DNA from: a virus
Lineage: Duplodnaviria > Caudoviricetes
Virus record (IMG/VR): IMGVR_UViG_3300033121_002154
Coordinates: 1-64,000 of that record
Length of the DNA stretch: 64,000 nucleotides
Direction: 5' to 3' (one strand)
Shown here: positions 2,816 through 48,316 of the stretch, piece after piece
Layout of the letters: the number at the start of each line of letters is the position of its first letter
Numbering within the stretch: position 1 is the stretch's first letter
Made by a program: the position numbers and the translations under genes
The notes under the pieces: model-generated
What the model was told of the DNA's origin: nothing
What the model saw: only the letters and a program-made list of their open reading frames with translations
Database searches by the model: none

Positions 2816-3079
2816 ATGATAAGTCTATCAAATTTATTAAAACTTATTCTTGAACAACAAAGAAAAAGAGTTGTTAGAAATGGAAAAATTGTGAATAAAA
2901 TCATATGTCCTCCAGGTAAGAAAATTGTCAATGGAAGATGTGTTCAAATGACATCAATTGAAAAAGTTAACAGAAAAAAATCTGCAAAGAAAGCTGCCAT
3001 TAAAAGAAAAAGTAAGAAAAGTACATCAACAAGAAAACGAAATCTTTCAATGAAGAAAAGAAAAAATTCAGGATTATAA
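2816..3079 (+). CDS. prohead core protein (T4 gp68-like), basic, with LILEQ leader
   Basis: Highly basic C-terminus RKRNLSMKKRKNSGL resembles the gp68 C-terminus; RVVRNGK motif. Confidence 0.6.
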   Translation: MISLSNLLKLILEQQRKRVVRNGKIVNKIICPPGKKIVNGRCVQMTSIEKVNRKKSAKKAAIKRKSKKSTSTRKRNLSMKKRKNSGL

Positions 3080-3351
3080 TGAAAATAAGAAAAAAAGATT
3101 TAATTAAACTGATAAATGAACAAAATCATAGTTCAATCGAAGATCAATCAACACATTTTAAAAATGATCTTTTATTAGCTATTAAAAATATAGATACTTT
3201 TAATTTATCAAATAAACAATTGAAAACCAAAGGAATTAATGCCAAATCATTAGTTGATGTTAAAAATGGCTGGAAACTTATTTGGGAAACTGATAATAAA
3301 AAATTTGAAACAATTTGTACACTATCTCATAAAGAAATTAAAAAATTATGA
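3079..3351 (+). CDS. leader-bearing putative internal head protein
   Basis: MKIRKKDLIKLINEQ leader. Confidence 0.6.
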   Translation: MKIRKKDLIKLINEQNHSSIEDQSTHFKNDLLLAIKNIDTFNLSNKQLKTKGINAKSLVDVKNGWKLIWETDNKKFETICTLSHKEIKKL

Positions 3352-4265
3352 TTCTAAAAGAAGAAGAGTTTATACCAAAAATATTAGAATACAGAAATAA
3401 TCCTTCTATATTTTGTAAAGAACAATGTAAAATCAAACACGTAACCAGGGGTTTGGTACCATTTGAAACATTTCCTGCACAAGATAGATGTATGCAAGAT
3501 TTTTTAAAACATAGATTTAATATAATTTTAAAAAGCCGACAAATTGGTATTTCAACTGTTGTAGCAGGATATATTTCTTGGAAATTAATATTTTTCCCAC
3601 ATCAGGAAATTAGAGTAATTGCTACAAAAGCTGAGACATCGAAGATTATTATAACAATGGCTTATAATATGATTGATAGCTGTGATCAAAGGATTTTATC
3701 TGTTATGGGTGCAACAAGAACATCTTTGGCAAAACATACAATTTCACTTGCAAATGGAAGTAAAGCTTATTCATTTGGACAAGCAAAAGGTGATAATCCA
3801 GATACAGGTGTAGGAACAAGTTTAAGTTTATTGGTAATTGACGAGGCAGCTTTGATTTCAAATATTTCTGAGGTTTGGACATCTGCATATCCTTCACTTT
3901 CACAAGGTGGAGATTGTATTATACTTTCAACTCCAAGAGGCGTTGATAATTGGTTTTATGAAATGTATCAAAAGGCAGAAAATAAAGAATATGGTTATGG
4001 TGAAGAACCATTTAATCCAATAAGACTTATGTGGTGGGAAAATTTAGAAAGAATTCAACATCCATTTACACCACTTGAAGATGATCCAACAGCAATAGGT
4101 GGAAAATCAAATTCTTGGTCAAGAGCAACTTTTGGTTCATTAACAAAGAAAAAGATTGCACAAGAATACTGTACTTCTGGTGATACAAAAATTACTTTAA
4201 GAGATAAAGAAACCGGAATTGTTTTTGATACTTCTATGGAAGAATTTTATAAACAACTATCATGA
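3348..4265 (+). CDS. terL: terminase large subunit, N-terminal ATPase half fused to split-intein N fragment
   Basis: Walker A-like KSRQIGIST, Walker B LLVIDEAA, coupling motif ILSTP; ends AQEY-CTSGDTKITL...YKQLS. Confidence 0.93.
   Translation: MILKEEEFIPKILEYRNNPSIFCKEQCKIKHVTRGLVPFETFPAQDRCMQDFLKHRFNIILKSRQIGISTVVAGYISWKLIFFPHQEIRVIATKAETSKIIITMAYNMIDSCDQRILSVMGATRTSLAKHTISLANGSKAYSFGQAKGDNPDTGVGTSLSLLVIDEAALISNISEVWTSAYPSLSQGGDCIILSTPRGVDNWFYEMYQKAENKEYGYGEEPFNPIRLMWWENLERIQHPFTPLEDDPTAIGGKSNSWSRATFGSLTKKKIAQEYCTSGDTKITLRDKETGIVFDTSMEEFYKQLS
4170..4262 (+). mobile_element. split intein N fragment (IntN, 31 aa)
   Basis: CTSGDTKITLRDKETGIVFDTSMEEFYKQLS: intein block A (C1-x-x-G-D-T) followed directly by a stop codon. 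Confidence 0.9.
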
Positions 4266-4786
4266 AAAAAATAATATTTATCTTTTTAATGTTTTGTTCA
4301 GTTATATCTTTTGGACAATCGGTTACATCAACAATTACAAATTTTCAAATTACAAAAGATAAACTTCTTTTTGATGTTTACATTCTCAGAACAAGTAAAT
4401 TACCATTAAACATGGGTAATTCATCATATATTTGGAATGTTGAAAAAGGAGTATTTAAAAATCCAAAAATAGTATATTTTAATTCAAAATATACATCAAA
4501 AAGTAATTCACAAGATTATGCAGATCCAAAATTAATTGCTATAAATACTTTCACTAAAAGTAAAATTGCATTACAGATATATTGCACTCAAGGTGATGGT
4601 ATTGGTGAAGAAATTAGTGGTTCTGGAGAATCAATTTATGGTGAAAAACTTTGTACTATTCAAATGGATATTATAAAATTTGGTTCATTAAATATAAAAT
4701 GGGATGTATTAAATTCAGCAACAGTTACTCCATCATTTTGGCCAATAATTACTGATACTTATTTTATTGATTTTTTTAAACAATAA
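4262..4786 (+). CDS. secreted cohesin-like beta-sandwich protein (paralog of 5237)
   Basis: Signal peptide MKKIIFIFLMFCSVISFG/Q; shares FDV..MG.SS...NP...N.(K/R)YT..LQI with 5237. Confidence 0.55.
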   Translation: MKKIIFIFLMFCSVISFGQSVTSTITNFQITKDKLLFDVYILRTSKLPLNMGNSSYIWNVEKGVFKNPKIVYFNSKYTSKSNSQDYADPKLIAINTFTKSKIALQIYCTQGDGIGEEISGSGESIYGEKLCTIQMDIIKFGSLNIKWDVLNSATVTPSFWPIITDTYFIDFFKQ

Positions 4787-4818
4787 AAATATATTTAAGC
4801 AAATTTAAAAATATTGAA

Positions 4819-5214
4819 ATGAAAATTACAAAAACTTTATTAAAGCAAATAATTCTTGAACAAAATCATCATTTTTTTGGACCATCAGCTGCCGATGAAA
4901 AAGAAACTGGGTTAGCAAATTTAAGAATTAAAAATCCGTTTATTTATAGAGGAAGATTTAAAAATGGTGATGCTTTTAAAAAATATATTAAAAAATATTA
5001 TTTAAAAAATGATTACAAAAGATTGTCAAGTACCCCTGTAAAAATAATACCAGGGAATCGAAATTTATTAACATTTTATTCTAAAGATGGGTTTGACAGA
5101 AAAAATGTTGAAAATATATTTAAGCCTATAATTATAAAATTTAATACAGTAGAAAGTTTACAGTTAAAATTAATAGATTTTAAACAAAATCAGTTTACTT
5201 TAATAATTGAATAA
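4819..5214 (+). CDS. leader-bearing putative internal head protein
   Basis: MKITKTLLKQIILEQ leader. Confidence 0.6.
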   Translation: MKITKTLLKQIILEQNHHFFGPSAADEKETGLANLRIKNPFIYRGRFKNGDAFKKYIKKYYLKNDYKRLSSTPVKIIPGNRNLLTFYSKDGFDRKNVENIFKPIIIKFNTVESLQLKLIDFKQNQFTLIIE

Positions 5215-5236
5215 TTGAATAATTGAATAAAAGAAT

Positions 5237-5758: not shown

Positions 5759-5767
5759 AAAGAAATT

Positions 5768-6628
5768 ATGAATAAAATTAGTTTAAAATTAGCAAAAAAA
5801 GTTGCAGACAAACTTGAAATTAAATTTGACAAATTTAGTTTAAAGCAATTTTGTTATGGAATGAATGTCGAAACAGAACACGGAAGTAAAGATAAAAAAA
5901 CACAAATTGTAAAAAATGATAATCCAATGATATTTGGTAAAATTGCTTTGGCACACTTGAATGAGTTTCCTGATTATTATATTAGATTAAATAGAATGGA
6001 GAAACAGGCAAAAAAAGATCAAAAAATTTTAAAAGAAAATCCTGATAAAATTAATCTAAAATATATAAGACAGGATAAACGAGATAGGGAAATAATATGG
6101 TTTGACAATGATACATATACATTTGGATATTTTGATAATAGATTATATATTGAATCTGGCGGAATTAAACATAGTGATTTAAAAAATGAAATGGGCCAAT
6201 TTGGTAGAGATGATCTTAAACATGCTGGAAGATTTTGGTTAAAAAATCATGTAATATCTTTTTGGAACCCTATAAACACACAAGATTTAAAGAAATTGAT
6301 TAGAGATATTTATAAAGAAGTACAAGTAAAAATTGAAAATGATTGGTATATTGAATATGATTATAATAAATTTAAAACAATAGGTGAATTCACAGGAGAA
6401 ACAACTAAAAGTAAAGATATTAATTCTGATCATACTGTTCCACCAATGTATAAAATTAAAAAACCGATAAGGGGTTTTGGTTCTGATAAATATAATAAAT
6501 TAGCTGCAACAAATAAATATAATTCTGTAGCTCAAATGAATTATTATAATAAGAACAAATATGCAAATGAAGAATATAAAATTACAAAAAAAGTTTTACT
6601 TGAAATTATCAGAAAATTTATAAAATAG
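5768..6628 (+). CDS. two-domain protein: DUF5661-like N-terminus + ESPD/GRFW-family domain + C-terminal leader-like helix
   Basis: GMNVETEH...IALAHLNEFPDYYIRL; ILKE/NPD junction; GRFW..SFW..GFGSDKY..AQMNY shared with 6941 and 29076; ends EEYKITKKVLLEII. Confidence 0.65.
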   Translation: MNKISLKLAKKVADKLEIKFDKFSLKQFCYGMNVETEHGSKDKKTQIVKNDNPMIFGKIALAHLNEFPDYYIRLNRMEKQAKKDQKILKENPDKINLKYIRQDKRDREIIWFDNDTYTFGYFDNRLYIESGGIKHSDLKNEMGQFGRDDLKHAGRFWLKNHVISFWNPINTQDLKKLIRDIYKEVQVKIENDWYIEYDYNKFKTIGEFTGETTKSKDINSDHTVPPMYKIKKPIRGFGSDKYNKLAATNKYNSVAQMNYYNKNKYANEEYKITKKVLLEIIRKFIK

Positions 6629-6940: not shown

Positions 6941-7549
6941 TTGAAATTACTTAAAGAAAGTCCAGATCACTATTATCTTACTGCAGAAAATAACAATGGA
7001 AAATTCATTGATGGTGATTGGAGAGATAGTGATGCATGGTGTTTTTGTTATTATAAAGATGAATTCTATATTGCAAAATCATGTAGTCATTTTAAATTAT
7101 TAAGTATTAATTTTAAAAATAGCGAAGATATAGATGAAATAATTGATGATGCATATTATAAAGGTAGATTTTGGAAAAATGGTAAATATTTAGCATTCTG
7201 GGAAAATCCAAGTAAAAGTGTATTACCTAAAATCATCAGTGATATTTACAAAGACACAAGAATCAAAATCACTGATGATTGGTGGATGGAATTAGATAAT
7301 GATAGAGCAGACCCTGTAAAAGTTCGTGATTATCTTGGTCATAAAAGAAAAGAAATAGATATGTCAAAAAGACATTTAACAAGTCCAATGTATAAGGATA
7401 AAAAAGATATAAGTGGTTTTGGTTCAGAAAAATATCAAAAAACAAGTTCATCTAATGGTTTTAATTCTGTTGCACAAATGAATTATTTAAAAAATGAGAA
7501 TAATTTAACTTTAAAAGCCATTTTAAATGAAATTAATAAAAATTATTGA
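6941..7549 (+). CDS. ESPD/GRFW-family protein with minimal leader
   Basis: MKLLKE/SPD; GRFW..AFW..GFGSEKY..AQMNY. Confidence 0.65.
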   Translation: MKLLKESPDHYYLTAENNNGKFIDGDWRDSDAWCFCYYKDEFYIAKSCSHFKLLSINFKNSEDIDEIIDDAYYKGRFWKNGKYLAFWENPSKSVLPKIISDIYKDTRIKITDDWWMELDNDRADPVKVRDYLGHKRKEIDMSKRHLTSPMYKDKKDISGFGSEKYQKTSSSNGFNSVAQMNYLKNENNLTLKAILNEINKNY

Positions 7550-8093
7550 GCAAATACAAATTCCAGATAAAATGGATTTTTATGAACTATTAAATTATTA
7601 TAATATATCCTTTGATGATTATTCTAATATTAGTGATGTTTGGGTAGACTGGCACAATAAAAACAAATCAAGTGCAATAAATAAATTATTAAAAAATTCA
7701 AAAAATACTTTAATTTCAAAAATTAGATTTTATCAGGAACATATTTTAAAGATTAAAAATTTCGGCAGTAAAGTTTTATCCGTAAAAGAATTTGAAAAAG
7801 CTTTAAATAAAACAATAACAATATATAGAGGTGGAGCTGGAGAATATGATCCAAAATATTCTAATTATAATAGAAAATGGGTGTCATTTACAGCATCTAA
7901 AAATAGAGTAGCTACTTTTTCTGAATATGCTGGTTCTGTTGCACAACATGTTTATATGTTACCGAAAAATAAAGAATATTGGAAAGTACAGGTTAATTGT
8001 AAATTAGATGATATTCTTTTATATTATGATGTTGGTGATGATGAAGTAATAATTCCATTGAGCATTGCAAAAACTGCAAAATTAATAATTTAA
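7527..8093 (+). CDS. putative ADP-ribosyltransferase (R-S-E type) with leader
   Basis: MKLIKIIEQ; IYRG...WVSFT...GDDEVII. Confidence 0.55.
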   Translation: MKLIKIIEQIQIPDKMDFYELLNYYNISFDDYSNISDVWVDWHNKNKSSAINKLLKNSKNTLISKIRFYQEHILKIKNFGSKVLSVKEFEKALNKTITIYRGGAGEYDPKYSNYNRKWVSFTASKNRVATFSEYAGSVAQHVYMLPKNKEYWKVQVNCKLDDILLYYDVGDDEVIIPLSIAKTAKLII

Positions 8094-8100: not shown

Positions 8101-8439
8101 ATGCTAAAATTAACTAATAAATATGAAGTTTTAACCCCAAATGGCTGGGATAATTTTGATGGGATTAATCAAACTGAATCTCAATATTTGATTAAAATTA
8201 CATTGGAAAATAAATTAATTATTAGAGTTACGCCTAATCATCAATTTGTAGTAAATAACATAAATGTTACTGCTAATGATTTGCAAGTTTTTGATGTAAT
8301 TCAAAGCAAAACAGGCTTAACAAAGATAATGAATATAGAAAGAGAAATTGATGAAAAAAATTTATTTAAAGTTTATGATTTATATAATGTCAATAATATT
8401 CAAAGAGCATATTATACAAATAATGTCATTAGTCATAAT
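8101..8439 (+). mobile_element. split intein C fragment (IntC, 113 aa)
   Basis: VLTPNGW start, block B TPNH, block F VYDLYNV, terminal SHN followed by Cys+1. Confidence 0.92.
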
Positions 8440-9315
8440 TGTTGTGACTTTATATTATCTGGTGAAACTGCAATAGATGCAGAAATTATCGAGTGGATTA
8501 AACAGAATTATATGAAAGAACCAATCGATAAACAAGGACAAGATAAAGATTTTTGGATTTGGAAATATCCTGAAACTGGTAGAAATTATATTATAGGTGC
8601 TGACGTTTGTAAAGGTGATGGAAGTGATTATGCATCTGCACAGATAATATGTGTTGAAACGCTTGAACAGGTCGCTGAATTTAAAGCAAAAGTTGATGCA
8701 GAAAGATTGGGTGCTTTGCTTTGTAAATGGGGAATTGATTATAATAATGCACTATTAGTTCCAGAAAATAATAACTTTGGACAAAGAACAATACAAAAAA
8801 TTCTTGATTTAAATTATACAAATTTATTTTGGTTTGATAAAAGATTTAAGGGATTAGTATTTTCTAATTCTGCTGAAGAACCCAATCAGGATAAAAAAGA
8901 ACCTGGTTTTCCAACAACAGGTAAAACAAGACCATTAATGTTAGAAAATTTGATTAAATATATAAATGAGTTGGTTGAATGTGGTTACAGAGGAATACCT
9001 GGGGGTATTATAATACATAGCAGTAGATTGATAACTGAATTTAATTCTTGGGGATGGTTTAATGGTAGATTGGATCATGCAAAAGGTAAACATGATGATT
9101 TAATTATCGCAATAGCAATTGCTTGTTTTATTTCAACTGTTTACAAACGTATTTCCGATAATGGTAACAATACTGTTATTGAATTTATGAAATTTTTCTC
9201 AAATGATAAACAGAAAATTGATGCATCTTTTGGTTTATATACAAGTGGTAAGAATAGTGGTCATAACCCGTATATAACACCTCAAGGTGAGGATATTTCA
9301 TTTTTGGTAAAATAA
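8101..9315 (+). CDS. terL: split-intein C fragment fused to terminase large subunit nuclease half
   Basis: First 113 aa are intein-like, then CCDFILSG; RNase H-like IIGADVCKG and HDDLIIA motifs. Confidence 0.93.
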   Translation: MLKLTNKYEVLTPNGWDNFDGINQTESQYLIKITLENKLIIRVTPNHQFVVNNINVTANDLQVFDVIQSKTGLTKIMNIEREIDEKNLFKVYDLYNVNNIQRAYYTNNVISHNCCDFILSGETAIDAEIIEWIKQNYMKEPIDKQGQDKDFWIWKYPETGRNYIIGADVCKGDGSDYASAQIICVETLEQVAEFKAKVDAERLGALLCKWGIDYNNALLVPENNNFGQRTIQKILDLNYTNLFWFDKRFKGLVFSNSAEEPNQDKKEPGFPTTGKTRPLMLENLIKYINELVECGYRGIPGGIIIHSSRLITEFNSWGWFNGRLDHAKGKHDDLIIAIAIACFISTVYKRISDNGNNTVIEFMKFFSNDKQKIDASFGLYTSGKNSGHNPYITPQGEDISFLVK

Positions 9316-10739: not shown

Positions 10740-12419
10740 ATGGAACAAAATAATTTTTTTAAAAAACTAACAAGATTTGTTCAGAAAAAAGGGTTTAGAA
10801 GAAATGTACCCACTGATAAGCCCATGTCTCAAACAGGAGTAGGAAATTACCCCGGATCAATTTTAGGAACAAATAGATTAGCAATGAGTATATATGAACA
10901 AAATTTGCAAGCTAATGCGGATAGAGTTGGAAGACTTAGAGACTATGATTTAATGGATTTTACACCTATTCCATCAAGTGCATTAAATGTAATCGCTGAT
11001 GATACATGCTCATATAATGAAGATGGAAAAATTTTAACAATTGAATCAAATAGTGAAAAAATTACCAAAGAATTAGAATATTTCTTTAATGATATTATTA
11101 ATATTGAATTTAATATTTATCACTGGATAAGAACACTTGTGAAATATGGTGATTCATTTCAATTAATGTCTGTAGAACCTAAGAAGGGTGTTTCTGGTAT
11201 TATCAGTTTACCAACTGCTGAAATTGAAAGAGATGAAGCTTTTGATGGTGATCCAAATTCAATTAGATTTAGATGGTTAAGTCAGATTGGTGATTATTAT
11301 CAAGATTATCAAGTTGCACACTTTAGATTAATTGGTGATGATGGATTTTTACCATATGGTAGAAGTATATTGGAATCAGGTAGAAGAACCTGGAAACAAT
11401 TACAATTATTAGAAGATGCAATGTTGATATACAGAATTTCAAGAGCATCTGAAAAACGTGTATTTCATATTGAAACAGGTAATTTACCACCAGATCAAAT
11501 ACCAGGATTTTTAGAAGAACAAAGATCAAGAATAAAAACAGAAACCTTAGTTAATCCTAATACTGGGGAAATTGATTTACGGTATCGTTCTTCAGCAATA
11601 ACTGATGATTTCTTTTTTGCAAAAAGAGGTGACATTAGTAGTACAATAGAAGTTTTACAAGGTGGTCAAAGAATTGGTGATACAGAAGATATAGAATATA
11701 TAAAACAACAATTAATTACCTCAATCGGAGTTCCTAAAATATATTTACAGTTTGATGAAGAATTAGGAAGTCGTTCATCTGCATCAAAGGAAGATATTAG
11801 ATTTTCCAGAACAGTTCAAAGAATTCAAAAAATTGTAATATCGGAATTAAAGAAAATGGCTATGATTCATTTATATAGTTTACAAAAATATGAAATGAAA
11901 GATATTATTAATTTTGATTTAAAATTATATAATCCTTCTACAATTATGGAACTTGGTAAACTTGAATTAATTGAAAAAAGATTTAGTATTTATAATCAAA
12001 GTGTAAATGAGGCAAATGCAATTTCAGCAACAAAAGCAAAAAGAGATATTTTACATATGACAGATGTTGAGATTAATGATGATTCTAAACAAATGATAGA
12101 GGATAAAAAGAAAGAAGCTAATCTTAAGAAAATTGAAGAAGGTGGAATGGAGCAGAGTGAAAGTGAAACACAACCAGAAAAATCAGCTGTTGATAATCAA
12201 TTTGATGATTCAAATGATTCATTAGGGGATGAATCAGATTCTGAATTTAAATTAGATCCAGCAATAGGAAGAAACAATAGCATAAAACAAGGAACCCCAT
12301 CAGAATTTCAAACTTCAAGCAAAGATGATTTCAAAATAGAGAACAGAAAAATTTTACATAATTTTGAATCTAATAAAAAGTTAATAGACTTCTTAGGGCT
12401 TAGAAAAACAATTAAATAA
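10740..12419 (+). CDS. portal protein (T4 gp20-like)
   Basis: LEDAMLIYRISRASEKRVFHIETGNLP, DDFFFAKRG, GVPK, EDIRFSR motifs. Confidence 0.93.
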   Translation: MEQNNFFKKLTRFVQKKGFRRNVPTDKPMSQTGVGNYPGSILGTNRLAMSIYEQNLQANADRVGRLRDYDLMDFTPIPSSALNVIADDTCSYNEDGKILTIESNSEKITKELEYFFNDIINIEFNIYHWIRTLVKYGDSFQLMSVEPKKGVSGIISLPTAEIERDEAFDGDPNSIRFRWLSQIGDYYQDYQVAHFRLIGDDGFLPYGRSILESGRRTWKQLQLLEDAMLIYRISRASEKRVFHIETGNLPPDQIPGFLEEQRSRIKTETLVNPNTGEIDLRYRSSAITDDFFFAKRGDISSTIEVLQGGQRIGDTEDIEYIKQQLITSIGVPKIYLQFDEELGSRSSASKEDIRFSRTVQRIQKIVISELKKMAMIHLYSLQKYEMKDIINFDLKLYNPSTIMELGKLELIEKRFSIYNQSVNEANAISATKAKRDILHMTDVEINDDSKQMIEDKKKEANLKKIEEGGMEQSESETQPEKSAVDNQFDDSNDSLGDESDSEFKLDPAIGRNNSIKQGTPSEFQTSSKDDFKIENRKILHNFESNKKLIDFLGLRKTIK

Positions 12420-14161: not shown

Positions 14162-14485
14162 ATGAAAAATCAAACTTTAACATTGTCGAATGTAAAAAAT
14201 AATTATTTTTTTAATGAAAAACTTTTGAAAAAAATTTGTAATGAAATAAATGAAAAAACTTCAGTTATAAATTTTTATCCTCAAAAAATTACAAAGACAA
14301 AATTTGGCTTAAGGCAGGTTATTTTGCGTAGTAAATATAAAAAAAATAATGTCAATAGTCAATGTAAATTATTATTGTTTGAAAATAGTAAAGGTAAAAT
14401 TAAACCTACAATAAGAATTGGGTTTATGCTTTCATTTGTCCAAGATATTAATATCTTAAACAAAATCATGAAAAAATATGAATAA
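14162..14485 (+). CDS. hypothetical protein
   Basis: 107-aa ORF packed in operon. Confidence 0.5.
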   Translation: MKNQTLTLSNVKNNYFFNEKLLKKICNEINEKTSVINFYPQKITKTKFGLRQVILRSKYKKNNVNSQCKLLLFENSKGKIKPTIRIGFMLSFVQDINILNKIMKKYE

Positions 14486-14819
14486 AGTAAAAAATTTTAT
14501 TAGAAAAGAAGTAAGAAAAATTAATGAACAACAATTACGAAGTCATAAACTTGGATATGATTTAAGTAAATCTAATACTTCAGTAACTCATTGGCTTGAA
14601 GATCATTTGAAAGAAATTGAAAATAAAAAAATATATCAAGATAAAGAGAAATTAATAGAGGTAATAAAAAGTATGAAAAATGATGGTATTCATGTGAGTG
14701 AACAGTATATTGATAAATTAATTATGACAATTAAAAAAATTAATCAACCACAGAAAATTTTACAATTTCTTTATGATGTATATTTAAAAGGTAGCTCCCT
14801 TGGAACACCAGAGAATTAA
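14478..14819 (+). CDS. leader-bearing protein
   Basis: MNKVKNFIRKEVRKINEQ; C-terminal LYDVYL..G similar to 19704. Confidence 0.55.
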   Translation: MNKVKNFIRKEVRKINEQQLRSHKLGYDLSKSNTSVTHWLEDHLKEIENKKIYQDKEKLIEVIKSMKNDGIHVSEQYIDKLIMTIKKINQPQKILQFLYDVYLKGSSLGTPEN

Positions 14820-14858: not shown

Positions 14859-15278
14859 ATGAAAATTAAAAAAGAAGTTTTATCAAAGCTTATCAAAAAA
14901 ATTATTAATGAAGGTGTTAGCAACTACCAGTGGGATTTAGGTGATTTGGACAATTCTCAAAAAAAACTGAAGCCAGGGCAAAAAATAGGTGATTATGTAA
15001 TTTTGTATAATGACGGTGACTGTATGTTTATAAGATTAAAGACATCTTATAAAAGAATATTGGACATTTATAAAAAAGAATATCAAAAATATGCAACAAA
15101 AGAAATACCTGCATTAGGGTGGATTAAAATGTTAAATAGCGTTGGCACTGACTATGCCTCGGGACTTTTTACTAACAAAGGAAGAAGACTTTGTATAAAA
15201 AATATTAAAAAACAAAGAGGTGGTAACAATGGAATGCCAATGATATTAATGCCAAAACCGTCTAGAATGAATTATTAA
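14859..15278 (+). CDS. leader-bearing protein
   Basis: MKIKKEVLSKLIKKIINEG. Confidence 0.6.
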   Translation: MKIKKEVLSKLIKKIINEGVSNYQWDLGDLDNSQKKLKPGQKIGDYVILYNDGDCMFIRLKTSYKRILDIYKKEYQKYATKEIPALGWIKMLNSVGTDYASGLFTNKGRRLCIKNIKKQRGGNNGMPMILMPKPSRMNY

Positions 15279-15318: not shown

Positions 15319-15963
15319 ATGACAAATAACAAAGCACTTTTAACTGAATGTAGAATCTGGAATACTTCTAAACAGTTAGTTATTGAACAAACAGAAAAGG
15401 GTATTCAAAAACTTTTTTTAAAAGGAAAAATTCAAGAAGCAGAAGCTGAAAATCAAAATGAAAGATTTTACCCAATGCATATTCTTGAAAGAGAAGTTGA
15501 AAATTTTAAAAAAATTATAGCTTCAAATAGTACTCAGGCAATCGGTGAATTAGATCATCCTGAAAATGCAGTTGTAAATTTAGAAAATGCATCACACATA
15601 ATGAGAGATATTTGGTGGCAAGGAAGAGAAGTCTGGGGAAAATTGGAAGTTTTAAACGGGCCAGATCCATATGGAACACCTAAGGGTAGAATATTGGAGA
15701 GTTTAATTCGAAGAGGATTAACTGTTGGAATATCAAGCCGAGGAGTGGGTTCAACATTGGATGATAGAAATGGAAAAGAAATCATTCAAGATGATTATCA
15801 AATTATTACATTTGATATTGTTAGTAATCCTTCAACAAGAGGGGCATTTTTATTAAAAGAAAATTATGCTAAATTAAGTAAACCATTAACTGCAAAACAA
15901 CTTAATCACATAAAATATTTTAAATTAAATAACATTTTAACTAAAATTTTGGGACAGGGATGA
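15319..15963 (+). CDS. prohead protease (T4 gp21-like)
   Basis: NQNERFYP, GELDHP, GISSRGVGS, DIVSNPS motifs. Confidence 0.93.
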   Translation: MTNNKALLTECRIWNTSKQLVIEQTEKGIQKLFLKGKIQEAEAENQNERFYPMHILEREVENFKKIIASNSTQAIGELDHPENAVVNLENASHIMRDIWWQGREVWGKLEVLNGPDPYGTPKGRILESLIRRGLTVGISSRGVGSTLDDRNGKEIIQDDYQIITFDIVSNPSTRGAFLLKENYAKLSKPLTAKQLNHIKYFKLNNILTKILGQG

Positions 15964-28336: not shown

Positions 28337-28370
28337 TGAAAAAATTAATTCAAATTATAAATGAAATGAA

Positions 28371-33145: not shown

Positions 33146-33165
33146 TAAATTTAAAAAATAAAAAT

Positions 33166-34892: not shown

Positions 34893-35740
34893 AAAACTTA
34901 AAAAATTTAATTAAAGAATCATTTGCATTTTATGGTTCTTCAGAAAATCAAAAAAGTGCAATTAGAACCATTGAATCATGGCTTAAAAGAATAAATATGA
35001 AAATTATAGGAGCATCACAATTTGGTGAACATGGAACAGTATCACTTGATTTAACAAAAAAGTATTCAGGAGAAATTTATGTTGGTGAAAATGGTTTTGG
35101 AGATAGCAAAGCCGATAGATCTTTCAAGGGTGGATATGGTCGTTTCGGGGGAAGCGTAGAAGTAAACGGAATCCCTATTCCAAATGAAAAAAGTTTTAAT
35201 GAATTTAAAAAAGCTATTTTGGAATCTTTAGTAATTCAAAATGAATACAAAAAAATGAAATCATTATCATTAATACAAATATTAGAAACATATTATCATG
35301 GTCGAAGAGGAAAAATTATATTTGATGAAGATAAACCCATGTTTTTTGCCAAAGATAAAGAAACAGCTGATTGGTATTCTGATGCTCGGGGAAAAGGAGA
35401 ATCAAATATTCTTGAAACTGATTTAGATATTAAAAAACCTTTTAAATTATACTCGAAGAAAGATGCCTTTAAATTTATAGAAATAATTAAAAGGGCAGGA
35501 TTTGATATAGTCATTGACTATAAAAAAGTAGGATGGGATATACCACAAAAATATACTCAACCTGTTAGAGATCATTCACCTTATGATGGAGAAAATTTAA
35601 TTGATTGGATATATGTTCCTAAAGTAAAAGATCAATTAAAAAAAGAAGGATATGATGGGATATTAGCATATGATATTCTTGGAAATAAAGAAATTGAAAT
35701 TGCCATTCCATTTTTTAAAAGACAAATAAAAAATTTATAA
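34889..35740 (+). CDS. two-domain protein with C-terminal ART-PolyVal-like domain
   Basis: MKNLKNLIKES leader; internal MKSLSLIQILE/T then YYHG..MFFAKDKETA..Y...EGYDGI. Confidence 0.6.
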   Translation: MKNLKNLIKESFAFYGSSENQKSAIRTIESWLKRINMKIIGASQFGEHGTVSLDLTKKYSGEIYVGENGFGDSKADRSFKGGYGRFGGSVEVNGIPIPNEKSFNEFKKAILESLVIQNEYKKMKSLSLIQILETYYHGRRGKIIFDEDKPMFFAKDKETADWYSDARGKGESNILETDLDIKKPFKLYSKKDAFKFIEIIKRAGFDIVIDYKKVGWDIPQKYTQPVRDHSPYDGENLIDWIYVPKVKDQLKKEGYDGILAYDILGNKEIEIAIPFFKRQIKNL

Positions 35741-35742
35741 AA

Positions 35743-36390
35743 ATGAAATTAAACATTATAATTGAGAATATTAATAAGCATAATTTATTTTTAGACATTA
35801 TTTTAAAAAAAGCTAATGATTCTGGAATTAATATTAATAGTGCTAAATTAATATCAAAATCAAATAAAACATTTTCATTGGAGATTATTATCAGGAGAGA
35901 AATTGATGCCAAACCTAATGAATTAAATAAAATTGAATTATTTAAAAAGTGGTTTTATGCACTTCTTAATAAAAACAAATATTTTATAGAAGATAATAAT
36001 GAGTGGCTTACTGATACTGGTTTTCATGATGATTTATTTAGATTTGAAAAAAATAATGATGTTGCAATAAAAAAATTACCAAAATTTATTTATCATTTTA
36101 CAACAGAAGAAAATTTAAAATCAATTCTTACTCATGGCTTAATTCCAAAAGCAAATAATAAAATTGAAAATCATCCGAAAAGAATTTTTTGTTTAACAAC
36201 AAAAAATAAAAAGTGGACATTTGAACAAAGTCTTTTATATCATTCTAAAACAAACTTCAATCATTTACGATTAATAAAAATTGATACATCAAAAATTAAT
36301 AATAAATTTTATTTAGACAATGATACAGTCGATGGAATATACACAAATACAAAAATTAATCCTATTGCATTGACATTAGCACATTTATAA
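35743..36390 (+). CDS. ART-fold (Tpt1/KptA/DUF952-like) protein with leader
   Basis: IYHFTTEENLKSILTHGLIP..RIF..LIKID..FYLD..GIYT. Confidence 0.6.
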   Translation: MKLNIIIENINKHNLFLDIILKKANDSGININSAKLISKSNKTFSLEIIIRREIDAKPNELNKIELFKKWFYALLNKNKYFIEDNNEWLTDTGFHDDLFRFEKNNDVAIKKLPKFIYHFTTEENLKSILTHGLIPKANNKIENHPKRIFCLTTKNKKWTFEQSLLYHSKTNFNHLRLIKIDTSKINNKFYLDNDTVDGIYTNTKINPIALTLAHL

Positions 36391-36403: not shown

Positions 36404-36823
36404 ATGAAATTAATCAAAATTCTTGAAAATTTAGATATTAGAGCTTATCCAAAGAAATTATATCACATTACTTTTGTAAATAATTGGAATAATGGAATTT
36501 TATGGGATGGTTTAATTCCTCAGAAAACTACTAGAACAATTCATGATAAAAAACCAAAAATTTATTTTATTGACACTGATTTTAGTTGGCAATATTTAGC
36601 AGATGATTTGGCGAAATATAATAAAGAAGATTATGCTTTATTATTAAAAGTTAATTTAAATAGTTTACCAAAAAATATTAAATTTTATGAAGATGAAGAT
36701 TCAAATGGATATTATACTTATTCAAAAATTCCTAAGTCTGCAATATCTCATGTAGGTTCTTATAAAATTAATAGAGAATTTGATATCAATCCTTTTAATG
36801 GGAAAAAAACTTATTATAAATGA
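36404..36823 (+). CDS. ART-fold (Tpt1/KptA/DUF952-like) protein with leader
   Basis: MKLIKILEN; LYHIT..GLIP..KIYF..LLKVN..FYED..GYYT..IP. Confidence 0.6.
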   Translation: MKLIKILENLDIRAYPKKLYHITFVNNWNNGILWDGLIPQKTTRTIHDKKPKIYFIDTDFSWQYLADDLAKYNKEDYALLLKVNLNSLPKNIKFYEDEDSNGYYTYSKIPKSAISHVGSYKINREFDINPFNGKKTYYK

Positions 36824-37659
36824 ACATAAAAAAATTACGAAATACTGTATTAAAAAGAAATCATATATACATAAAGTCAAAAATTCCACTAAATATTAGT
36901 AAGCTTAAAAATATAGCATCTGATGGATTTGTCGGTAATAAAAAATATTTTGAATTATTTTCTACAAGTTTTAAATACAATAAAATTTTTATGATGCCTT
37001 ATGATGATGTATTTAAATTTGATGCACATGATAATTATGATAATTATTTATATGAAATTATACTTAAATCTGAAAAAGTAAAACAAGATTTAATAAGTCG
37101 TAATGAAAATGGAGAACCTGAAATTATATTATATTTTTCAGATATTGCACATTTATCATTAGTTATTAGTGAAAAACAATTTGATAGATACAACAAAAAA
37201 AAATACAATAAAATTATAAATGATAAAATTTCTAGTGAACTTTTTCAAGTTCTGAAATCATATATGATGGGATATGGGGAAATGGAAAAGGAATATTATA
37301 ATTCTTTTCAAAAATTTAAATTAAATCGTAAATTAATTTTATTTAGAGGATTATCAATAGATATATATCATAAAAATTTTAAAAATTTTAAAAAAAATAA
37401 AATTATTAATTTAAATCTTTTACACTCGTCAAGCTGGACTACCAATCTTGTGGTTGCAAATGACTTTGCAGTAACAATGAGTGATAGATGTATCGGGATG
37501 ATTATCACAGCGACAATCTTTCCAAAAGATATTATAATTGATACAAGATTATTGCCCTCAGAAACATTAGATTCTTTATACACAGGAAATCAAAGAGAAA
37601 TTATTGTAAAACCAGGAAAATACAAAGGGAGAATTGTCTCAATAAATGAAAATTTATAA
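36820..37659 (+). CDS. putative ADP-ribosyltransferase, paralog of 21484
   Basis: LFRGLS...SSWTTNLVVA...DIIIDTRLL...NQREIIVKPG. Confidence 0.65.
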   Translation: MNIKKLRNTVLKRNHIYIKSKIPLNISKLKNIASDGFVGNKKYFELFSTSFKYNKIFMMPYDDVFKFDAHDNYDNYLYEIILKSEKVKQDLISRNENGEPEIILYFSDIAHLSLVISEKQFDRYNKKKYNKIINDKISSELFQVLKSYMMGYGEMEKEYYNSFQKFKLNRKLILFRGLSIDIYHKNFKNFKKNKIINLNLLHSSSWTTNLVVANDFAVTMSDRCIGMIITATIFPKDIIIDTRLLPSETLDSLYTGNQREIIVKPGKYKGRIVSINENL

Positions 37660-38520: not shown

Positions 38521-38958
38521 ATGAAATTAAATCAATTAAAACTTTTAATTAAAAAAGTGATAAAAGAATCAAAAGCTTCTGATGAAGCTCATAAAAAGGG
38601 ATTGGAAAGTGCTGGTTTTGGACATTGGAAAGACAAAAGTGGTAAGATAGTTGCCACAACTTCGGATGATAAACTTGTTTTTAATAAAAATAAAGATGAT
38701 AAAAAAGAAAAAAGTGAACAAAAAAATGATGAGGATTTATTTAAAGTTGATAAAGAAGATAGATTATATAATGAAGATTTAGATGATAATGGTAATGAAA
38801 TTTTAAATTATGCTTCAAAAAAATATCCAAAAGTTGACACAAATATTTTAAAAAAGAGAGTTGAAAGAATGATGAATGATGATTATTATATTGATGATGA
38901 TACTGGTTTTGTAGACAGAAAAAAGTTTAAAAATCGTTTAAATACTATATTTAAATAA
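38521..38958 (+). CDS. leader + AHKKGL module protein
   Basis: MKLNQLKLLIKKVIKES; ASDEAHKKGLESAGFGHWKDKSG nearly identical to the module in 24855. Confidence 0.7.
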   Translation: MKLNQLKLLIKKVIKESKASDEAHKKGLESAGFGHWKDKSGKIVATTSDDKLVFNKNKDDKKEKSEQKNDEDLFKVDKEDRLYNEDLDDNGNEILNYASKKYPKVDTNILKKRVERMMNDDYYIDDDTGFVDRKKFKNRLNTIFK

Positions 38959-38959: not shown

Positions 38960-39754
38960 ATGACATTAAAAAAAATATTAAATGAATTGATATATGCCGA
39001 AAAAATTCCAAATGATTTATCAAAAATTTATTGGAAAAATGGTAGAATTGCATTTAGCACAGATGACATGACAATGTTATTTGATTCTATAATTTTTGGA
39101 GTTAACAAAGAATCAAAAGAATTATTTTATTATACAATGGATGATTGGTCTGAAATTCGTTCAATCAAGCATATTCAGCAAGCTTTAAAAGATTTAATAC
39201 GTGCAAAAATTATTGATTTAACATGGATTGTAACAATTGAAAGTAAAAAAAATACAATACGTTCTTTAAATTCAAATAAAGTCAAAGACATAATAAATAT
39301 TGATACAAATTTTAGTAATAAAATTCCATTTTGTTTTCATGGAACTTCCACAGAATATCTACCAGATATTTTAAAAAATGGTATTATTAATAGAAAAAAT
39401 TCAAAAACAAAACCAAACTGGGATAAAGGATATGTTGAAATATCTAAATATAACATTTATCTTACAATTGATTATCAACGTGCAGTTTATTACGCAAACA
39501 AAACAGTAGAAGCAAATAAAAATCAAGGAATAATTTCAAAGCCAATAGTTATAATGATCAAAGATTTAGATACTAAATTTGCAATAACTGATGATGATTA
39601 TTTGACACATAAAAATTTATCATTACTACAATATTTAAGAACAGGTAAGAAAGCAAAAGATAATTATATTCAGGGAATTCGTAATACATCACAATTTGCA
39701 TATACAAAAAATATTCCTGCAAATAAAATTTATAAAGTATTTAAACGACATTAA
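38960..39754 (+). CDS. leader-bearing ART-fold protein
   Basis: MTLKKILNE; FHGTS..ILKNGI..IYLT..AVYYA. Confidence 0.6.
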   Translation: MTLKKILNELIYAEKIPNDLSKIYWKNGRIAFSTDDMTMLFDSIIFGVNKESKELFYYTMDDWSEIRSIKHIQQALKDLIRAKIIDLTWIVTIESKKNTIRSLNSNKVKDIINIDTNFSNKIPFCFHGTSTEYLPDILKNGIINRKNSKTKPNWDKGYVEISKYNIYLTIDYQRAVYYANKTVEANKNQGIISKPIVIMIKDLDTKFAITDDDYLTHKNLSLLQYLRTGKKAKDNYIQGIRNTSQFAYTKNIPANKIYKVFKRH

Positions 39755-40256: not shown

Positions 40257-41420
40257 ATGGATATATTAGATAAAAAAATAGAGAACCCAGAAACACATAG
40301 ACAGATAAAATTAAGTACTGCATTACATCATGATAAAGATGATACAGTATATAAAACAGCCAAAAATATTATTGATAAAAGTAAAAAAGAAAAAAAACCA
40401 AAAAAAGAACCAAGTATTTTTATTAAAAAATATGGCAATTTAAAATTAAATGCATTTCCACCTGAAGATGTGAAAGAGGAAGATGTAAAAGTTAATACAG
40501 AAGGTGACATTCATAGTCATGCTGTGTTAACTTGGCGTGATCCAAAAACTGGTCGTGCTGTAAATAGTTACACTCAAAAATTTATGAAAAGAAATGCAAA
40601 AATTAAATGGGCTAGAATAAAAAAATTAAATAGCCATAAAGTTGAATCTATAATAAAAGAATCAAATGATGAATTAAATTCAGATGATCCCGAAATAAGT
40701 GATAGTGCTGCAATCATTTCTATAATTGCACAAACTGGATTAAGAATAGGTGATCATACCAATTATAATAGAACTAAAAATCGTGGTGTAATGACACTTG
40801 GTCCTGAAAATATAAAAATTGAAGACAATATAATTAAATTAAATTTTGTAGGTAAAAGTTATAAAGAAAACAATGCATCGATAAAAGATGAAAAATTAGC
40901 AAATTATTTACAAAAAAGATTAAATGAAAATAAAGATAAAAATTTTATATTTGATACTGGGTATAATGAAGTAAATAGTTTATTTGATAAATTTGCTGGA
41001 AATAAATTTAAAATCAAAGATTTAAGAACATATACTGCAACAACTATGGCAAAAAATATTCTCTTAAAAGATAAAACTCCACCGCCACCTTTGCCTGAAA
41101 ATGATAGACAAATAAAAAAAGCAATTAAGAAAAAATTATTAAATGTATTTGAACAAGTTAGCCAGAGATTAAATAATACACCAGCAATGGCAAAATCAAG
41201 TTATATTCATCCTGAAATTATTAATAAATGGTTAGCAACATTAGGTGTAAGAGAAGAATTAACAAAAGAAGTATATTCAGAAGGAAAAATATTTGTTAAT
41301 TTATTAACAGAAGAAAAGAAAAGTTCAACATTTAAAGTCACAAATGATTTTGAAGATTGTGATGAATATGAATTACCAAAATGGTGGAATGATGAAAATG
41401 TTAAATTAATTAAAAAATGA
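40257..41420 (+). CDS. DNA topoisomerase IB (bacterial/poxvirus-like)
   Basis: GLRIG (Arg), FVGKS (Lys), KDLRTY (Arg), LNNT, SYIHP (catalytic Tyr). Confidence 0.85.
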   Translation: MDILDKKIENPETHRQIKLSTALHHDKDDTVYKTAKNIIDKSKKEKKPKKEPSIFIKKYGNLKLNAFPPEDVKEEDVKVNTEGDIHSHAVLTWRDPKTGRAVNSYTQKFMKRNAKIKWARIKKLNSHKVESIIKESNDELNSDDPEISDSAAIISIIAQTGLRIGDHTNYNRTKNRGVMTLGPENIKIEDNIIKLNFVGKSYKENNASIKDEKLANYLQKRLNENKDKNFIFDTGYNEVNSLFDKFAGNKFKIKDLRTYTATTMAKNILLKDKTPPPPLPENDRQIKKAIKKKLLNVFEQVSQRLNNTPAMAKSSYIHPEIINKWLATLGVREELTKEVYSEGKIFVNLLTEEKKSSTFKVTNDFEDCDEYELPKWWNDENVKLIKK

Positions 41421-42361
41421 AATTAATAAATATTTTAAATGAATTACGATATTTAGATTATCAAAAAGATATTGCTAATAATAAAATTTTAAAAGATAAT
41501 GAAACAATTTCAGTATTTCACGGGTTTGCTCAATTAAATCAAGCATTGTTAGCAATAAAATTTGGATTATCTGGTAAAGAAAATGCTGATAGAAGATATA
41601 GTTATGAATATGGTAATAATCCTAAAGGTTTATTTGTAAGTGCAGATATTCAAACAATAATTCGCTCACATTTTGCAGGTAGCGGTGTCATCATTCAATT
41701 TTCAACAAAAGTAAAAAATCTTGAATCACCTGTTTGGGTAGGTGGAAGAAGTTACTTTGTTCAAGGTGAATATACAAAAAGTTTTAAAGATGATAATGAA
41801 AGAGAAGAACAAAGATTAAAAAATAGAGAAAGAGATAGTGCAAATATATATCCAACAATTTCAAAAAGTGATAGGCCTGAATTGGCACAAACATTATTTG
41901 ATAATATGGAACATCAAGCTTTGTTTATTGGACATTTAAATCCAAATATGATTAAGTATGTTTGGGTACATAAAAATTTAATGATTAACAAAAGAACAAG
42001 TGGAATATGGAAGAAAATGCAACCAAAAGTATTTTTAAAAAAATATTTTGAATCAAATGCTAAATCAAAAACACAATCTTATAATAGAAAAACTCAAAAA
42101 TGGGAATATGGAGAAGAGGATTATTCTGATGAATATTATAAACATTTAGATAAAATTTTTAAACCAAATGATGATTTTAATTTAAATAAAGTTAATGAAT
42201 ATTTTAAAAAACATAAATTTACAATAAGTGGAAATGAATATACATCTTTTACTCTAAATACATTTTTAAAATCTTTTTATCAAAGTAGAATTTATGAAGA
42301 TTATATAGACAAAATGTTTTGGCCAAAACAAATTGAGCAAATTGAGCAACTTTTAAAATAA
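41417..42361 (+). CDS. leader-bearing possible ART-fold protein
   Basis: MKLINILNE; VFHGF..GLSG..GLFVS..EHQALF. Confidence 0.5.
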   Translation: MKLINILNELRYLDYQKDIANNKILKDNETISVFHGFAQLNQALLAIKFGLSGKENADRRYSYEYGNNPKGLFVSADIQTIIRSHFAGSGVIIQFSTKVKNLESPVWVGGRSYFVQGEYTKSFKDDNEREEQRLKNRERDSANIYPTISKSDRPELAQTLFDNMEHQALFIGHLNPNMIKYVWVHKNLMINKRTSGIWKKMQPKVFLKKYFESNAKSKTQSYNRKTQKWEYGEEDYSDEYYKHLDKIFKPNDDFNLNKVNEYFKKHKFTISGNEYTSFTLNTFLKSFYQSRIYEDYIDKMFWPKQIEQIEQLLK

Positions 42362-47000: not shown

Positions 47001-47633
47001 GCAACTCACAACAATATGTTTTATAATAATTTAGTTTATGCAGGAATAGTTGGAACTCCGGATACGGCTGATGCAAAAGTATATCCATCTGGTATTACAT
47101 CATTTGGTGGGCATGATTCTTTATATGTTTTTAATAATATTTTTATTCTGGATTCTGGAAGAGCATTTAGATTAGAACCCACATATAAAAGTGAACATGG
47201 GCAGACAATAAATGCATTTATTCATAATAATATATATTGGGATGTAGACGGAACTCAAGATAAAATAATTTCACAATGGAGAAAAACAGGATGGACTTTA
47301 GTGACATGGTTTCACTGGTTTGATAAAACTTTTAGCTCACTTACTGAATGGGCTGACTCAACGGGTTATGAAAAAAATGGTATGAGTTATACATTTATAA
47401 ATACAAATCCTAATATTAAAAATATAATGGCTAGAATTTATGGCACATCTGCAAGAATAAAATTACTTGATACATTAAATAATTTTAAACCATTACCAGG
47501 TTCTGTAGCATTTAATAGTGGAACAAACTATAATAATATTGTAAGATATTTGGGCCACGATACTGCAACATATGATTTTTATGGAAATATAATTGATGCA
47601 ACAGATGATATTGGAATATATTCATCACCATAA
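43902..47633 (+). CDS. large tandem right-handed beta-helix protein (depolymerase/pectate-lyase-like) with signal-peptide-like segment; start uncertain
   Basis: Two copies of Y(F/Y)VS..G.D.NSGL...S..TL...GD.V.F.GGD...FNSYGTGKAT; Asn-ladder repeats; IILFLALFVNGVA/Q. Confidence 0.75.
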   Translation: MSRQLMIHKHFFILSLNLMAKFLEPVEKNTHIQYFSLTIILFLALFVNGVAQPIFTPPQPNRTVKKYFVSKLGNDANSGLTAGTSWQTLDRVNRQRLFSGDSVVFNGGDTILGSLNLNSQKNSQFNNIDVSSVLPISFNSYGTGKATLKCADTLSYVVKITYLAKTKITFKNLNFLGIYDAVSYSGGNNSIGYGIVIDNYTRNFYVDKNGINIYPGSGGLFSVDSCRFSRFKTAGIGLIVVSPLKQEATFNITSNDFDSIGFTGIYGIGIYSCNVNITNNSITNIIGKNSTDNYSSAGIFFNRVNNASIQYNYINKIGMNNLQSFGGVYIAGSSNCEIRRNEIKNVRNKTGSDGAGIYFNCQSDSNSAEYNYIANCETGIILSNATNNSCPDWHTPEDEFVQSSYNVAAYNIIMMDSGATTGISLYNYPYRSVYTRYDGRFPKRNFIYNNLLYIKRSKDIGQSNMDDTAYFTCGIRQFGYNDSTYIYNNILYLKDSTLAISTALTHSSDISDSLTNQWGNLFTNSKILNNNYYFENEDSTYRFSEQLGTFGPAPNYYPLSRKFLYPTYWSDSTSSEKDVDYLYSYYNTDPGIKNITQNLSVKINPYEFDTLTCFQITDIYSNVLGNGTDFNTDIQKIANVLSLDIYGNAIPQQPSLGVYQGYIRTRHYYVSSAGDDNNSGLLTTRSFKTLTKISTINLHSGDTVSFKGGDIIYGQYNKTIVLKNDSSKIVFNSYGTGKATIEAIVGQDKIFNLNYSKQIKYEFKNLIFKGDYDAYNRSGDTLNQYGIMFTNSDKTITPECSNFYFNIDSCEFTGFKVSGLCLINNNYYIRGYLRIQNSNFHDIGVKGFEIYRIYYSDFKVTNNSITNIYGKWGGTTPHSSNTYNLYAYATYIIQSRGLIIDSNYVNNIGNYAAGCGLYVSASKSVKFQHNEVRNIKTMTGVEGHSLYQDCGSDSVLFEYNYSQNSYHGLSLAGGGTISSGYDPIYFPDGVVEDNIGSNNNIARYNIFIMDSTSHSAATLYSADTNYRHGDYSYATHNNMFYNNLVYAGIVGTPDTADAKVYPSGITSFGGHDSLYVFNNIFILDSGRAFRLEPTYKSEHGQTINAFIHNNIYWDVDGTQDKIISQWRKTGWTLVTWFHWFDKTFSSLTEWADSTGYEKNGMSYTFINTNPNIKNIMARIYGTSARIKLLDTLNNFKPLPGSVAFNSGTNYNNIVRYLGHDTATYDFYGNIIDATDDIGIYSSP

Positions 47634-47686
47634 TAAAATTTCAAAATAATTTTTTATTGATTAAAAAATATAAAATATTTATTAAA

Positions 47687-48316
47687 ATGATAACTATAAA
47701 AAAAATATTAAATGAAATTCTTTTAAATGAAGGAATGGAAAAAGATGCATTAGTAGATAATGCAAGTAAGGCTTTATTCAAAGTTATGAATAAATATGCT
47801 ACTAAAGAAAATAGATATCAAGCCATATTATTGGTAATAATGCAAGCTATAGATTATAGATTAAATTCTGTAGATGATAGCTTTAAATATCTTCAATATA
47901 TTGCACATAACATTCTTCGTGGGGAAAATTTTCAATTGAATAATAATGCTATGGATATATTATTAGATAAAGAAAAAGTAAATTTGGATAAAAATGAAGA
48001 TTTTAATGAACATGATGAAATTTCATTAGATGGAATTGTAATAAATAATAGAACAAAAACTGTTAATTTTGGTGACAACCCTTCTATACAAATGCCAAAT
48101 ATTCAATTTAAAATTTTATATTTCTTAATGTCTCATCCGGATGTATTTTATTCAAGACAATCAATATTAAAAAATGTTTGGGGTGATAGAGGATATGATG
48201 TCAATGATAGAAATGTTGATGTTAAAATTTCACAATTAAAAGGATTTATGCCTAATGAATTCAAATCAAAAATAATTGGTAAAAAGAATATTGGATATAA
48301 GTTTGATTCTAAATAG
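47687..48316 (+). CDS. leader + OmpR/PhoB-type winged-helix DNA-binding domain, no receiver domain (likely start 47687)
   Basis: FKILYFLMSHPDVFYSRQSILKNVWG..DRNVDVKISQLK..IGYKF; MITIKKILNEILLNEG. Confidence 0.8.
   Translation: MITIKKILNEILLNEGMEKDALVDNASKALFKVMNKYATKENRYQAILLVIMQAIDYRLNSVDDSFKYLQYIAHNILRGENFQLNNNAMDILLDKEKVNLDKNEDFNEHDEISLDGIVINNRTKTVNFGDNPSIQMPNIQFKILYFLMSHPDVFYSRQSILKNVWGDRGYDVNDRNVDVKISQLKGFMPNEFKSKIIGKKNIGYKFDSK

Follow-up and report, generated by a model that had tools for sequence, protein, structure and literature searches.

We examined a 64,000-nucleotide stretch of viral DNA (hereafter the window), the first 64 kb of the 92,907-bp linear virus record IMGVR_UViG_3300033121_002154 (~24% G+C), and found that many of its plus-strand genes begin with a short leader peptide that ends sharply at the glutamate of a hydrophobic-x-Glu site. 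The same strand encodes a prohead protease of the family typified by gp21 of phage T4. In T4, gp21 cuts after L/I-x-Glu, dismantles gp22 and removes propeptides of 7-65 residues from virion proteins, and a 10-residue capsid-targeting sequence (CTS) suffices to load foreign proteins (PMC9026906, PMC3012670). We consider it probable that the leaders in the window are capsid-targeting propeptides of the T4 type, greatly expanded in number and present in two forms; the mechanism, known from T4, is probably at work here in a much enlarged version. CheckV rates the record 44% complete, so every gene and leader count given below is a lower bound.

The canonical form of the leader is 15 residues long. 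Searched as a degenerate DNA pattern, MKI[TSR]K..L..[LI]I.E[QSN] heads exactly 13 open reading frames (ORFs), all on the plus strand and all at starts that an earlier note on this DNA had listed, and it found no match in 100 dinucleotide-preserving shuffles. Mean pairwise amino-acid identity among the 13 is 73% over residues 1-15 and 6% over both residues 16-30 and residues 31-50, bearing out the observation that similarity ends at the Glu. When the bodies, stripped of their first 22 residues, were compared by BLAST, only 16275 and 16627 (genes are named here by their start positions) proved related, and the 13 can indeed be described as otherwise mostly unrelated. They lie at 3079-3351 (90 amino acids; 36.0 bits to a hidden Markov model (HMM) of the leaders), 4819-5214 (131 amino acids; 23.3 bits), 15960-16256 (98 amino acids, directly 3' of the protease gene; 36.7 bits), 16275-16625 and 16627-16977 (the paralogous pair, 116 amino acids each), 17604-17882 (92 amino acids), 17909-18439 (176 amino acids, with Ser after the Glu), 18921-19190 (89 amino acids), 20006-20272 (88 amino acids), 23534-23950 (138 amino acids), 23947-24858 (303 amino acids, with a body that belongs to a widespread phage family), 25998-26216 (72 amino acids, with Asn after the Glu) and 26822-27031 (69 amino acids, with a Lys/Pro-rich basic body).

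At the nucleotide level the leader is 77% identical; the 45 nt that precede it are 39% identical, and the sequence that follows 34%. Identity at codon position 3 of the leader is 61%, against 83-86% at positions 1 and 2, and different codons are used in 34% of the codon pairs that encode the same residue. Because third codon positions are the least conserved and synonymous codons differ, the sequences indicate selection on the leader peptide and not on the DNA, as had been proposed. This bears on the possibility that the conserved stretch acts as nucleic acid, either by enhancing translation initiation or as a cassette for recombination by which genes move, with the peptide incidental. An A-rich start could help initiation, and common 45-nt blocks might aid shuffling, comparable to the promoter-terminator motifs reported in T4-like phages (PMC4122927). 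We disfavor this explanation as highly improbable: besides the codon pattern, the upstream DNA is unconserved, conservation stops at the codon boundary after the Glu, and the same peptide, an MKITK...IKE leader, is encoded by different DNA in marine T4-like contigs of 36-49% G+C.

The leaders are confined to one strand and one part of the window. Some 70 genes, which we count as late genes, form a plus-strand block between 2.5 and 51.5 kb; they include a two-piece terminase, portal, S77 protease, scaffold and gp23-type capsid protein; the other genes (96 in the gene call) are small and lie on the minus strand. Within the first 22 residues, two hydrophobic residues-x-E-[QSN] occurs in 22 of the 70 late plus-strand genes and in none of the 96 minus-strand genes (Fisher p 6e-10), with a frequency of 1-2% in internal 22-residue windows. 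The motif is thus far from being equally common in other genes of this AT-rich genome; equal frequency was the outcome that the earlier note had named as counting against its proposal. Without the final [QSN], the counts are 32/70 and 5/96. Bare [IL]xE, found in 41/70 late and 24/96 minus-strand genes, is so common by chance that it cannot be used gene by gene. Two simpler explanations can be set aside: chance or AT-rich composition is ruled out by the absence of matches in shuffles and among the 96 minus-strand genes, and a paralogous family by the BLAST comparison without leaders.

An HMM built from the 13 canonical leaders scored eight additional late N-termini above every minus-strand N-terminus. 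A short form of 8-10 residues (MKL.KI[IL], an optional N, then E) heads ten late genes and no minus-strand gene. Adding the 10 short-form leaders and a few irregular long variants to the 13 canonical ones makes about 22-28 tagged genes supportable on sequence patterns; the figure of about 36 advanced earlier needs the loosest pattern, for which a quarter or more of the matches are expected by chance. Leader form sorts with protein size, the median being 98 amino acids for canonical and 240 for short-form genes (p 5e-4). Canonical cargo consists of small proteins, with an isoelectric point above 8 in 9/13 and most of them non-enzymatic; short-form cargo consists of larger, enzyme-like proteins.

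The late block also encodes parts of a T4-type prohead, namely a gp20 portal, a gp23 shell protein and a scaffold with multiple predicted cutting sites. The gp21-type S77 prohead serine protease (15319-15963, +) matches PF03420 (1.2e-26; 93.9 bits against a cut-off of 27) and phrog_207 and is 32% identical to T4 gp21. All of 16 homologues retain its His80, Ser139-Ser140 and Glu23, the last being the Glu of an N-terminal site in the protease itself, LVIE23|Q. The portal gene lies at 10740-12419 (+; PF07230 2.3e-64). The scaffold (48614-49714, +), assigned by its gp22 position and site content, is homologous to a gene in the protease-major capsid protein (MCP) interval of Flavobacterium phage immuto (E 1e-11). 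Of its 18 [ILVM]xE candidate sites, ten read I-[SV]-E-Q, and most of these ten fall within acidic tandem repeats. The gp23-type MCP (49777-51513, +; PF07068 3.3e-71) has a predicted propeptide site, LNE66|S, that precedes its conserved core, and other sites at 28, 53 and 64. The recurrence of the leader-type site in both scaffold and MCP, reported earlier, therefore holds, and the I-x-E|Q of the scaffold matches the I-K-E|Q of the leaders. Gln follows [IL]xE at 10/18 sites in the scaffold and 14/31 in the leaders, against 5/290 in the rest of the proteome. In the marine relatives, Glu follows the leader site in 18/22 cases, and scaffold sites are most often followed by Ala and Glu.

By portal and capsid protein the nearest named phages, at 34-45% identity, are Flavobacterium phage immuto, Microcystis phage Mel-JY01 and Rhodothermus phage RM378, and the source is therefore a distant, uncultured T4-like phage. 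The closest protease homologues are 57-72% identical, and IMG/VR yielded no close relatives when searched with the protease alone. Two Bacteroidota-style signal peptides (4262, 5237) hint at a Bacteroidota host. The large terminase is split into an N-terminal ATPase ORF (3348-4265) and a C-terminal ORF (8101-9315) that lie 3.8 kb apart. Among the seven genes between them, two are leader-tagged (4819, 7527) and two carry the signal peptides just mentioned.

The strongest conserved feature of the leaders is their cleavage-type end, a hydrophobic-x-Glu followed by Gln, Ser or Asn that is common to scaffold and MCP, and several cargo proteins are potentially toxic enzymes. Both points would fit a peptide that is solely a propeptide removed by the protease, one that keeps enzymes inactive or marks proteins for timed processing while other parts of the protein bring about entry into the head. 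We find this improbable. Residues 1-11 of the leader are conserved as well as the site itself, which a bare cleavage site would not need, and canonical cargo is mostly small and non-enzymatic. Prohead entry of T4 internal protein III (IPIII) is seen with a non-cleavable leader in which Glu is changed to Asp. In T4 it is the CTS residues upstream of the site that carry targeting (PMC9026906).

Homologues in other phages show that leaders are exchanged on conserved bodies. Among 56 homologues of the 23947 body, 34 carry other leaders that hold two hydrophobic residues-x-E, 12 carry other short extensions that mostly end in [ILM]-Asn-Glu, and ten have no leader and start directly at the conserved body. 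Some of these leaders are nearer to the T4 CTS than the leader of this phage is. The CCA-adding enzyme encoded at 33432 gives a similar picture: 98 of its 119 closest homologues begin with a leader, no longer than 16 residues, whose end is two hydrophobic residues-x-E. There are 89 different leaders in this family; the Glu always stands 26 residues before the GGxVRD core and is usually followed by a small residue. The sequences of both families argue that leaders are swappable between homologous bodies, and hence modular.

Nor is a cargo set of this kind unique to this phage: many uncultured T4-like phages carry the same leader family and similar tandem arrays. The 1,231 genes that surround S77 proteases include 22 strict MKITK...IKE copies, with no more than three per locus, and on one metagenome contig leaders head 8/12 genes. 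At least 120 stretches of viral contigs carry a second leader type that resembles the T4 CTS, and in its arrays as many as 8/11 genes are tagged. PF03420 is encoded by 4/5 of the leader-array records, the fifth being a fragment rated 10% complete. In 72 related loci, strict leaders showed a weak enrichment beside the protease (11/21 within three genes), which we do not use as evidence. Literature searches for the leader strings found no paper describing such families or arrays, which is no proof that they are undescribed. Three contigs with the second leader type have the S77 domain inside frames of 618-648 amino acids, suggesting a protease fused to another head protein. Flavobacterium phage immuto has leaders of its own (MKKSQL...IIKE). 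This cultured phage also has a second shared N-terminus, of ME.xFDLKKFLVENKL type, on four genes (3186, 17011, 18012, 24621). It would be well suited to experiments on leader function.

These comparisons also bear on whether the peptide might stay on the protein as an N-terminal interaction helix, or serve as a recognition tag for a modifying enzyme, chaperone or oligomerization partner. Such a role would account for leader-like helices that also occur internally and at C-termini (described below), and for the fixed distance of the Glu from the core in the CCA-enzyme family. We judge it, too, to be an unlikely explanation. The tag stops exactly at a protease-type site, the residue after its Glu matches the scaffold sites, leader arrays co-occur with S77 proteases, and ten homologues of 23947 have no leader at all. 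A radical-SAM gene, the candidate for a modifying enzyme, is absent from the 93-kb record, which is itself 44% complete.

The interval from the protease end (15963) to the scaffold start (48614) spans ~33 kb and ~55 genes, including most of the tagged genes. In T4 the head genes run 20-67-68-21-22-23 without interruption and the protease and scaffold genes are adjacent; in phage immuto the order is protease, two small genes, scaffold, MCP. Several genes inside the tagged island lack a recognizable leader: a type IB topoisomerase (40257-41420; PF01028, 2.1e-20) and a NUDIX hydrolase (19187-19720; 7e-18), and, in mid-island, four tandem paralogues of 88-95 amino acids without leaders (32288-33435).

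The short-form genes, all on the plus strand and recognized by the short-form pattern, include 7527-8093 (188 amino acids, eight residues to the Glu), 26219-26794 (191 amino acids) and 30119-31111 (330 amino acids, with an HExxH motif), the last two also found by the leader HMM. Others are 34889-35740 (283 amino acids, with a weak ART-PolyVal match, PF18760 1.2e-4, below cut-off), 35743-36390 (215 amino acids, weak Tpt1/ART-like matches), 36404-36823 (139 amino acids, related to 35743 by BLAST), 38960-39754 (264 amino acids) and 41417-42361 (314 amino acids, weak ART-like leads), ART standing for ADP-ribosyltransferase. The product of 47687-48316 (209 amino acids) has a leader with two consecutive sites and an OmpR/PhoB-type winged-helix domain (PF00486 3e-13).

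Variant leaders, again on the plus strand, end in LILE|Q on the 87-residue product of 2816-3079 (10.7 bits to the HMM, above all minus-strand N-termini) and in IINE|G just 5' of the protease at 14859-15278 (9.9 bits). A possible variant with INE|Q at residues 15-18, weak at 1.5 bits, heads a small protein 5' of the protease in the gp67/68 position (14478-14819). The sequence of 17005-17607 (200 amino acids, coiled-coil-like) shows a leader ending in IISE|Q at residue 22, seen also with the HMM; that of 18461-18835 holds LLKE|S and LIEE|G, and that of 20770-21477 ends in VLNE|S. The leader of 38521-38958 ends in VIKE|S. Leaders on the predicted enzymes treated below end in IIQE|I (21484-22944, 486 amino acids), IINE|Q (31095-32291, 398 amino acids) and IINE|N (33432-34892). 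The sequence also reads as a detached 12-codon leader mini-ORF (28336-28374, +). This mini-ORF stops two codons past its Glu, in a different frame from the gene at 28371, which encodes 233 amino acids; the junction holds an (ATGAA)x3 repeat, and a change of one 5-bp unit would fuse or separate tag and cargo.

Leader-like stretches were also seen away from N-termini. A 401-residue protein (24786-25991) has an internal leader-like stretch ending in LLQE|S near residue 102, and the 30 residues that follow it are 80% identical to the start of the predicted mature 38521 product; its C-terminus carries a ParB-like DGHHRW motif. A protease site may here join two modules into one protein. The paralogues 5768-6628, 6941-7549 and 29076-30122 carry a leader-like helix at the C-terminus, the first of them with an N-terminal DUF5661 domain as well. 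By analogy with T4 Alt, which is processed at its C-terminus too, these may be C-terminal tags. On the minus strand, a near-C-terminal stretch in the early-strand gene 57955-58527 scores 20.6 bits to the leader HMM, by far the best internal match.

Pfam and PDB sequence searches gave no match above threshold for most cargo proteins. The product of 21484 was modeled with AlphaFold 2 (AF2) at a pLDDT of 86.3, and of the top 50 structure matches, at least 17 were ART entries that align to its residues 197-365 (Z 5.3-7.8, 125-147 residues aligned), including a Listeria ART-ARH toxin, Vis, C3 exoenzymes, VIP2, iota-like toxins, ExoS, SpvB and others. These Z values are middling but consistent, and the alignments cover the triad. 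In an alignment of 40 homologues, Ser287, Trp288 and Glu339 are invariant and Arg252 and Gln337 nearly so, giving an R-S-QxE signature. None of the 40 family members has a Pfam ART match, and there was no PDB sequence match. The triad and the modeled fold together identify 21484 as a predicted R-S-E ADP-ribosyltransferase. A paralogue, 36820-37659, lacks the Glu site. The C-terminal part of the 31095 product carries an R-S-ExE signature (YRG, S-x-S and E-x-E motifs), and its Atlas neighbors with ADPrib_exo_Tox serve as a lead only. At least two tagged R-S-E ADP-ribosyltransferases (21484 and 31095) are thus predicted, neither with detectable similarity to phage ARTs in the phage collection; 34889, 35743, 36404, 38960 and 41417 give weak ART-superfamily hints only. 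The 33432 product matches CCA-adding tRNA nucleotidyltransferases (phrog_2244 1.2e-53) from residue 35 onward. For the 23947 body, AF2 gave a confident fold (pLDDT 85.6), and no convincing PDB fold match was found (best Z 6.2).

Every computational test able to contradict a T4-style function of the leaders agreed with it. The protease family, the sites, the restriction to one strand and locus, the exchange of leaders and the S77 proteases of other leader-array records stand in its support. Of the earlier proposal, the count of 36 is too high, and the description of the tag as an amphipathic helix is not demonstrated. The hydrophobic moment of the 15-mer is equaled by 25% of its own shuffles and so is not significant. 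The AF2 model of the 23947 product does place a helix at leader residues 5-16.

Several points weigh on the other side. That helix is predicted with modest confidence (pLDDT 62-68), and a T4 late-promoter motif, as late expression would have it, is not enriched upstream of tagged genes. The weakest variants are individually indistinguishable from chance, and the I-x-E-Q sites of the scaffold, lying in tandem repeats, are not independent counts. The fixed spacing in the CCA-enzyme family could mean that the N-terminal helix is part of the enzyme, and leader-like helices are also found in odd places for cleavage, namely the C-termini of 5768, 6941 and 29076 and the interior of 57955. Only the general design, MK and then hydrophobic-I-x-E, is common to the leader and the T4 CTS, and the peptide is too short for a statistical test of relationship. 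Moreover, the phage is uncultured and represented by a 44%-complete fragment, and core binding, cleavage, packaging and ejection are argued from T4.

If the leaders do act as T4-type targeting propeptides, tagged proteins would be made late in infection with an N-terminal peptide of 15 residues in the long form or 8-10 in the short form, and this peptide would keep them bound to the scaffolding core as the gp23-type shell closes around them. The S77 protease would then cut hydrophobic-x-Glu sites just behind the Glu, with a preference for Gln, Ser or Asn as the next residue. This cutting would dismantle the scaffold at about ten I-x-E|Q sites, remove the first 66 residues of the capsid protein, trim the protease itself and clip the leaders. 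Mature cargo would be free in the head and would leave with the DNA at the next infection. One group of cargo would comprise about a dozen small, mostly basic proteins like the T4 internal proteins, and the other, larger enzymes (at least two R-S-E ADP-ribosyltransferases and a CCA-adding enzyme) together with a winged-helix DNA binder.

The likeness to the T4 CTS and internal proteins is broad. Both systems place a short N-terminal peptide, with an MK start and a hydrophobic-I-x-Glu end, on unrelated small proteins whose bodies are diverse and mostly basic, and both have a gp21-family protease, a gp20 portal and a gp23 capsid. They differ in leader sequence, in length (15 or 8-10 residues here, 10 in T4) and in the preference here for Gln after the Glu. 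The 93-kb fragment holds 13 canonical and about 10-15 variant tagged genes, compared with three in T4, and these fill the protease-scaffold interval, whereas T4 has separate ip loci; unlike the T4 internal proteins, the present system is known from sequence alone. Across all T-evens, internal-protein families number 'at least 10' (PMC12373910). T4 Alt is a packaged ADP-ribosyltransferase with short propeptides (PMC12373910); it is injected, and gp21 removes those propeptides. The 21484 and 31095 products resemble it in having an R-S-(Q/E)xE signature behind a short peptide with a protease-type end. The window differs in having several ART-like genes against one packaged in T4, with the paralogue 36820 lacking the Glu site. 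The phiKZ-like giants (phiKZ, 201phi2-1, SPN3US) likewise process at least 19 head-internal proteins after Glu at a very short motif; a diverged gp21 homologue there processes ejection and inner-body proteins, and propeptides can hold redundant sites. They differ in S/A-x-E cutting, in having no common N-terminal leader reported, in capsid lineage and in their much larger genomes. Compared with the marine T4-like leader arrays, the window has Gln instead of Glu after the site, and two coexisting leader forms.

A more ambitious picture can be offered only tentatively. The protease-scaffold interval may be a 33-kb arsenal of at least 25 packaged and injected proteins, sorted by the two leader forms: the long form for abundant small anti-defense proteins, and the short form for low-copy enzymes, among them several ADP-ribosyltransferases, a CCA-adding enzyme that mends damaged tRNA ends and a winged-helix factor that might switch on early promoters upon entry. 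The two tag lengths offer a testable idea about how copy number might be set.

Should the tags function as they do in T4, at least two dozen finished proteins would be delivered with the DNA, before any phage gene is expressed, some of them enzymes that would alter host proteins, mend tRNA and perhaps initiate transcription. Capsids could then be loaded with foreign proteins by means of these new short tags. The finding would also widen the view of the proteins that phages inject, and would supply a simple sequence rule for finding injected effectors and anti-defense proteins in uncultured T4-like phages, a group that abounds in water.

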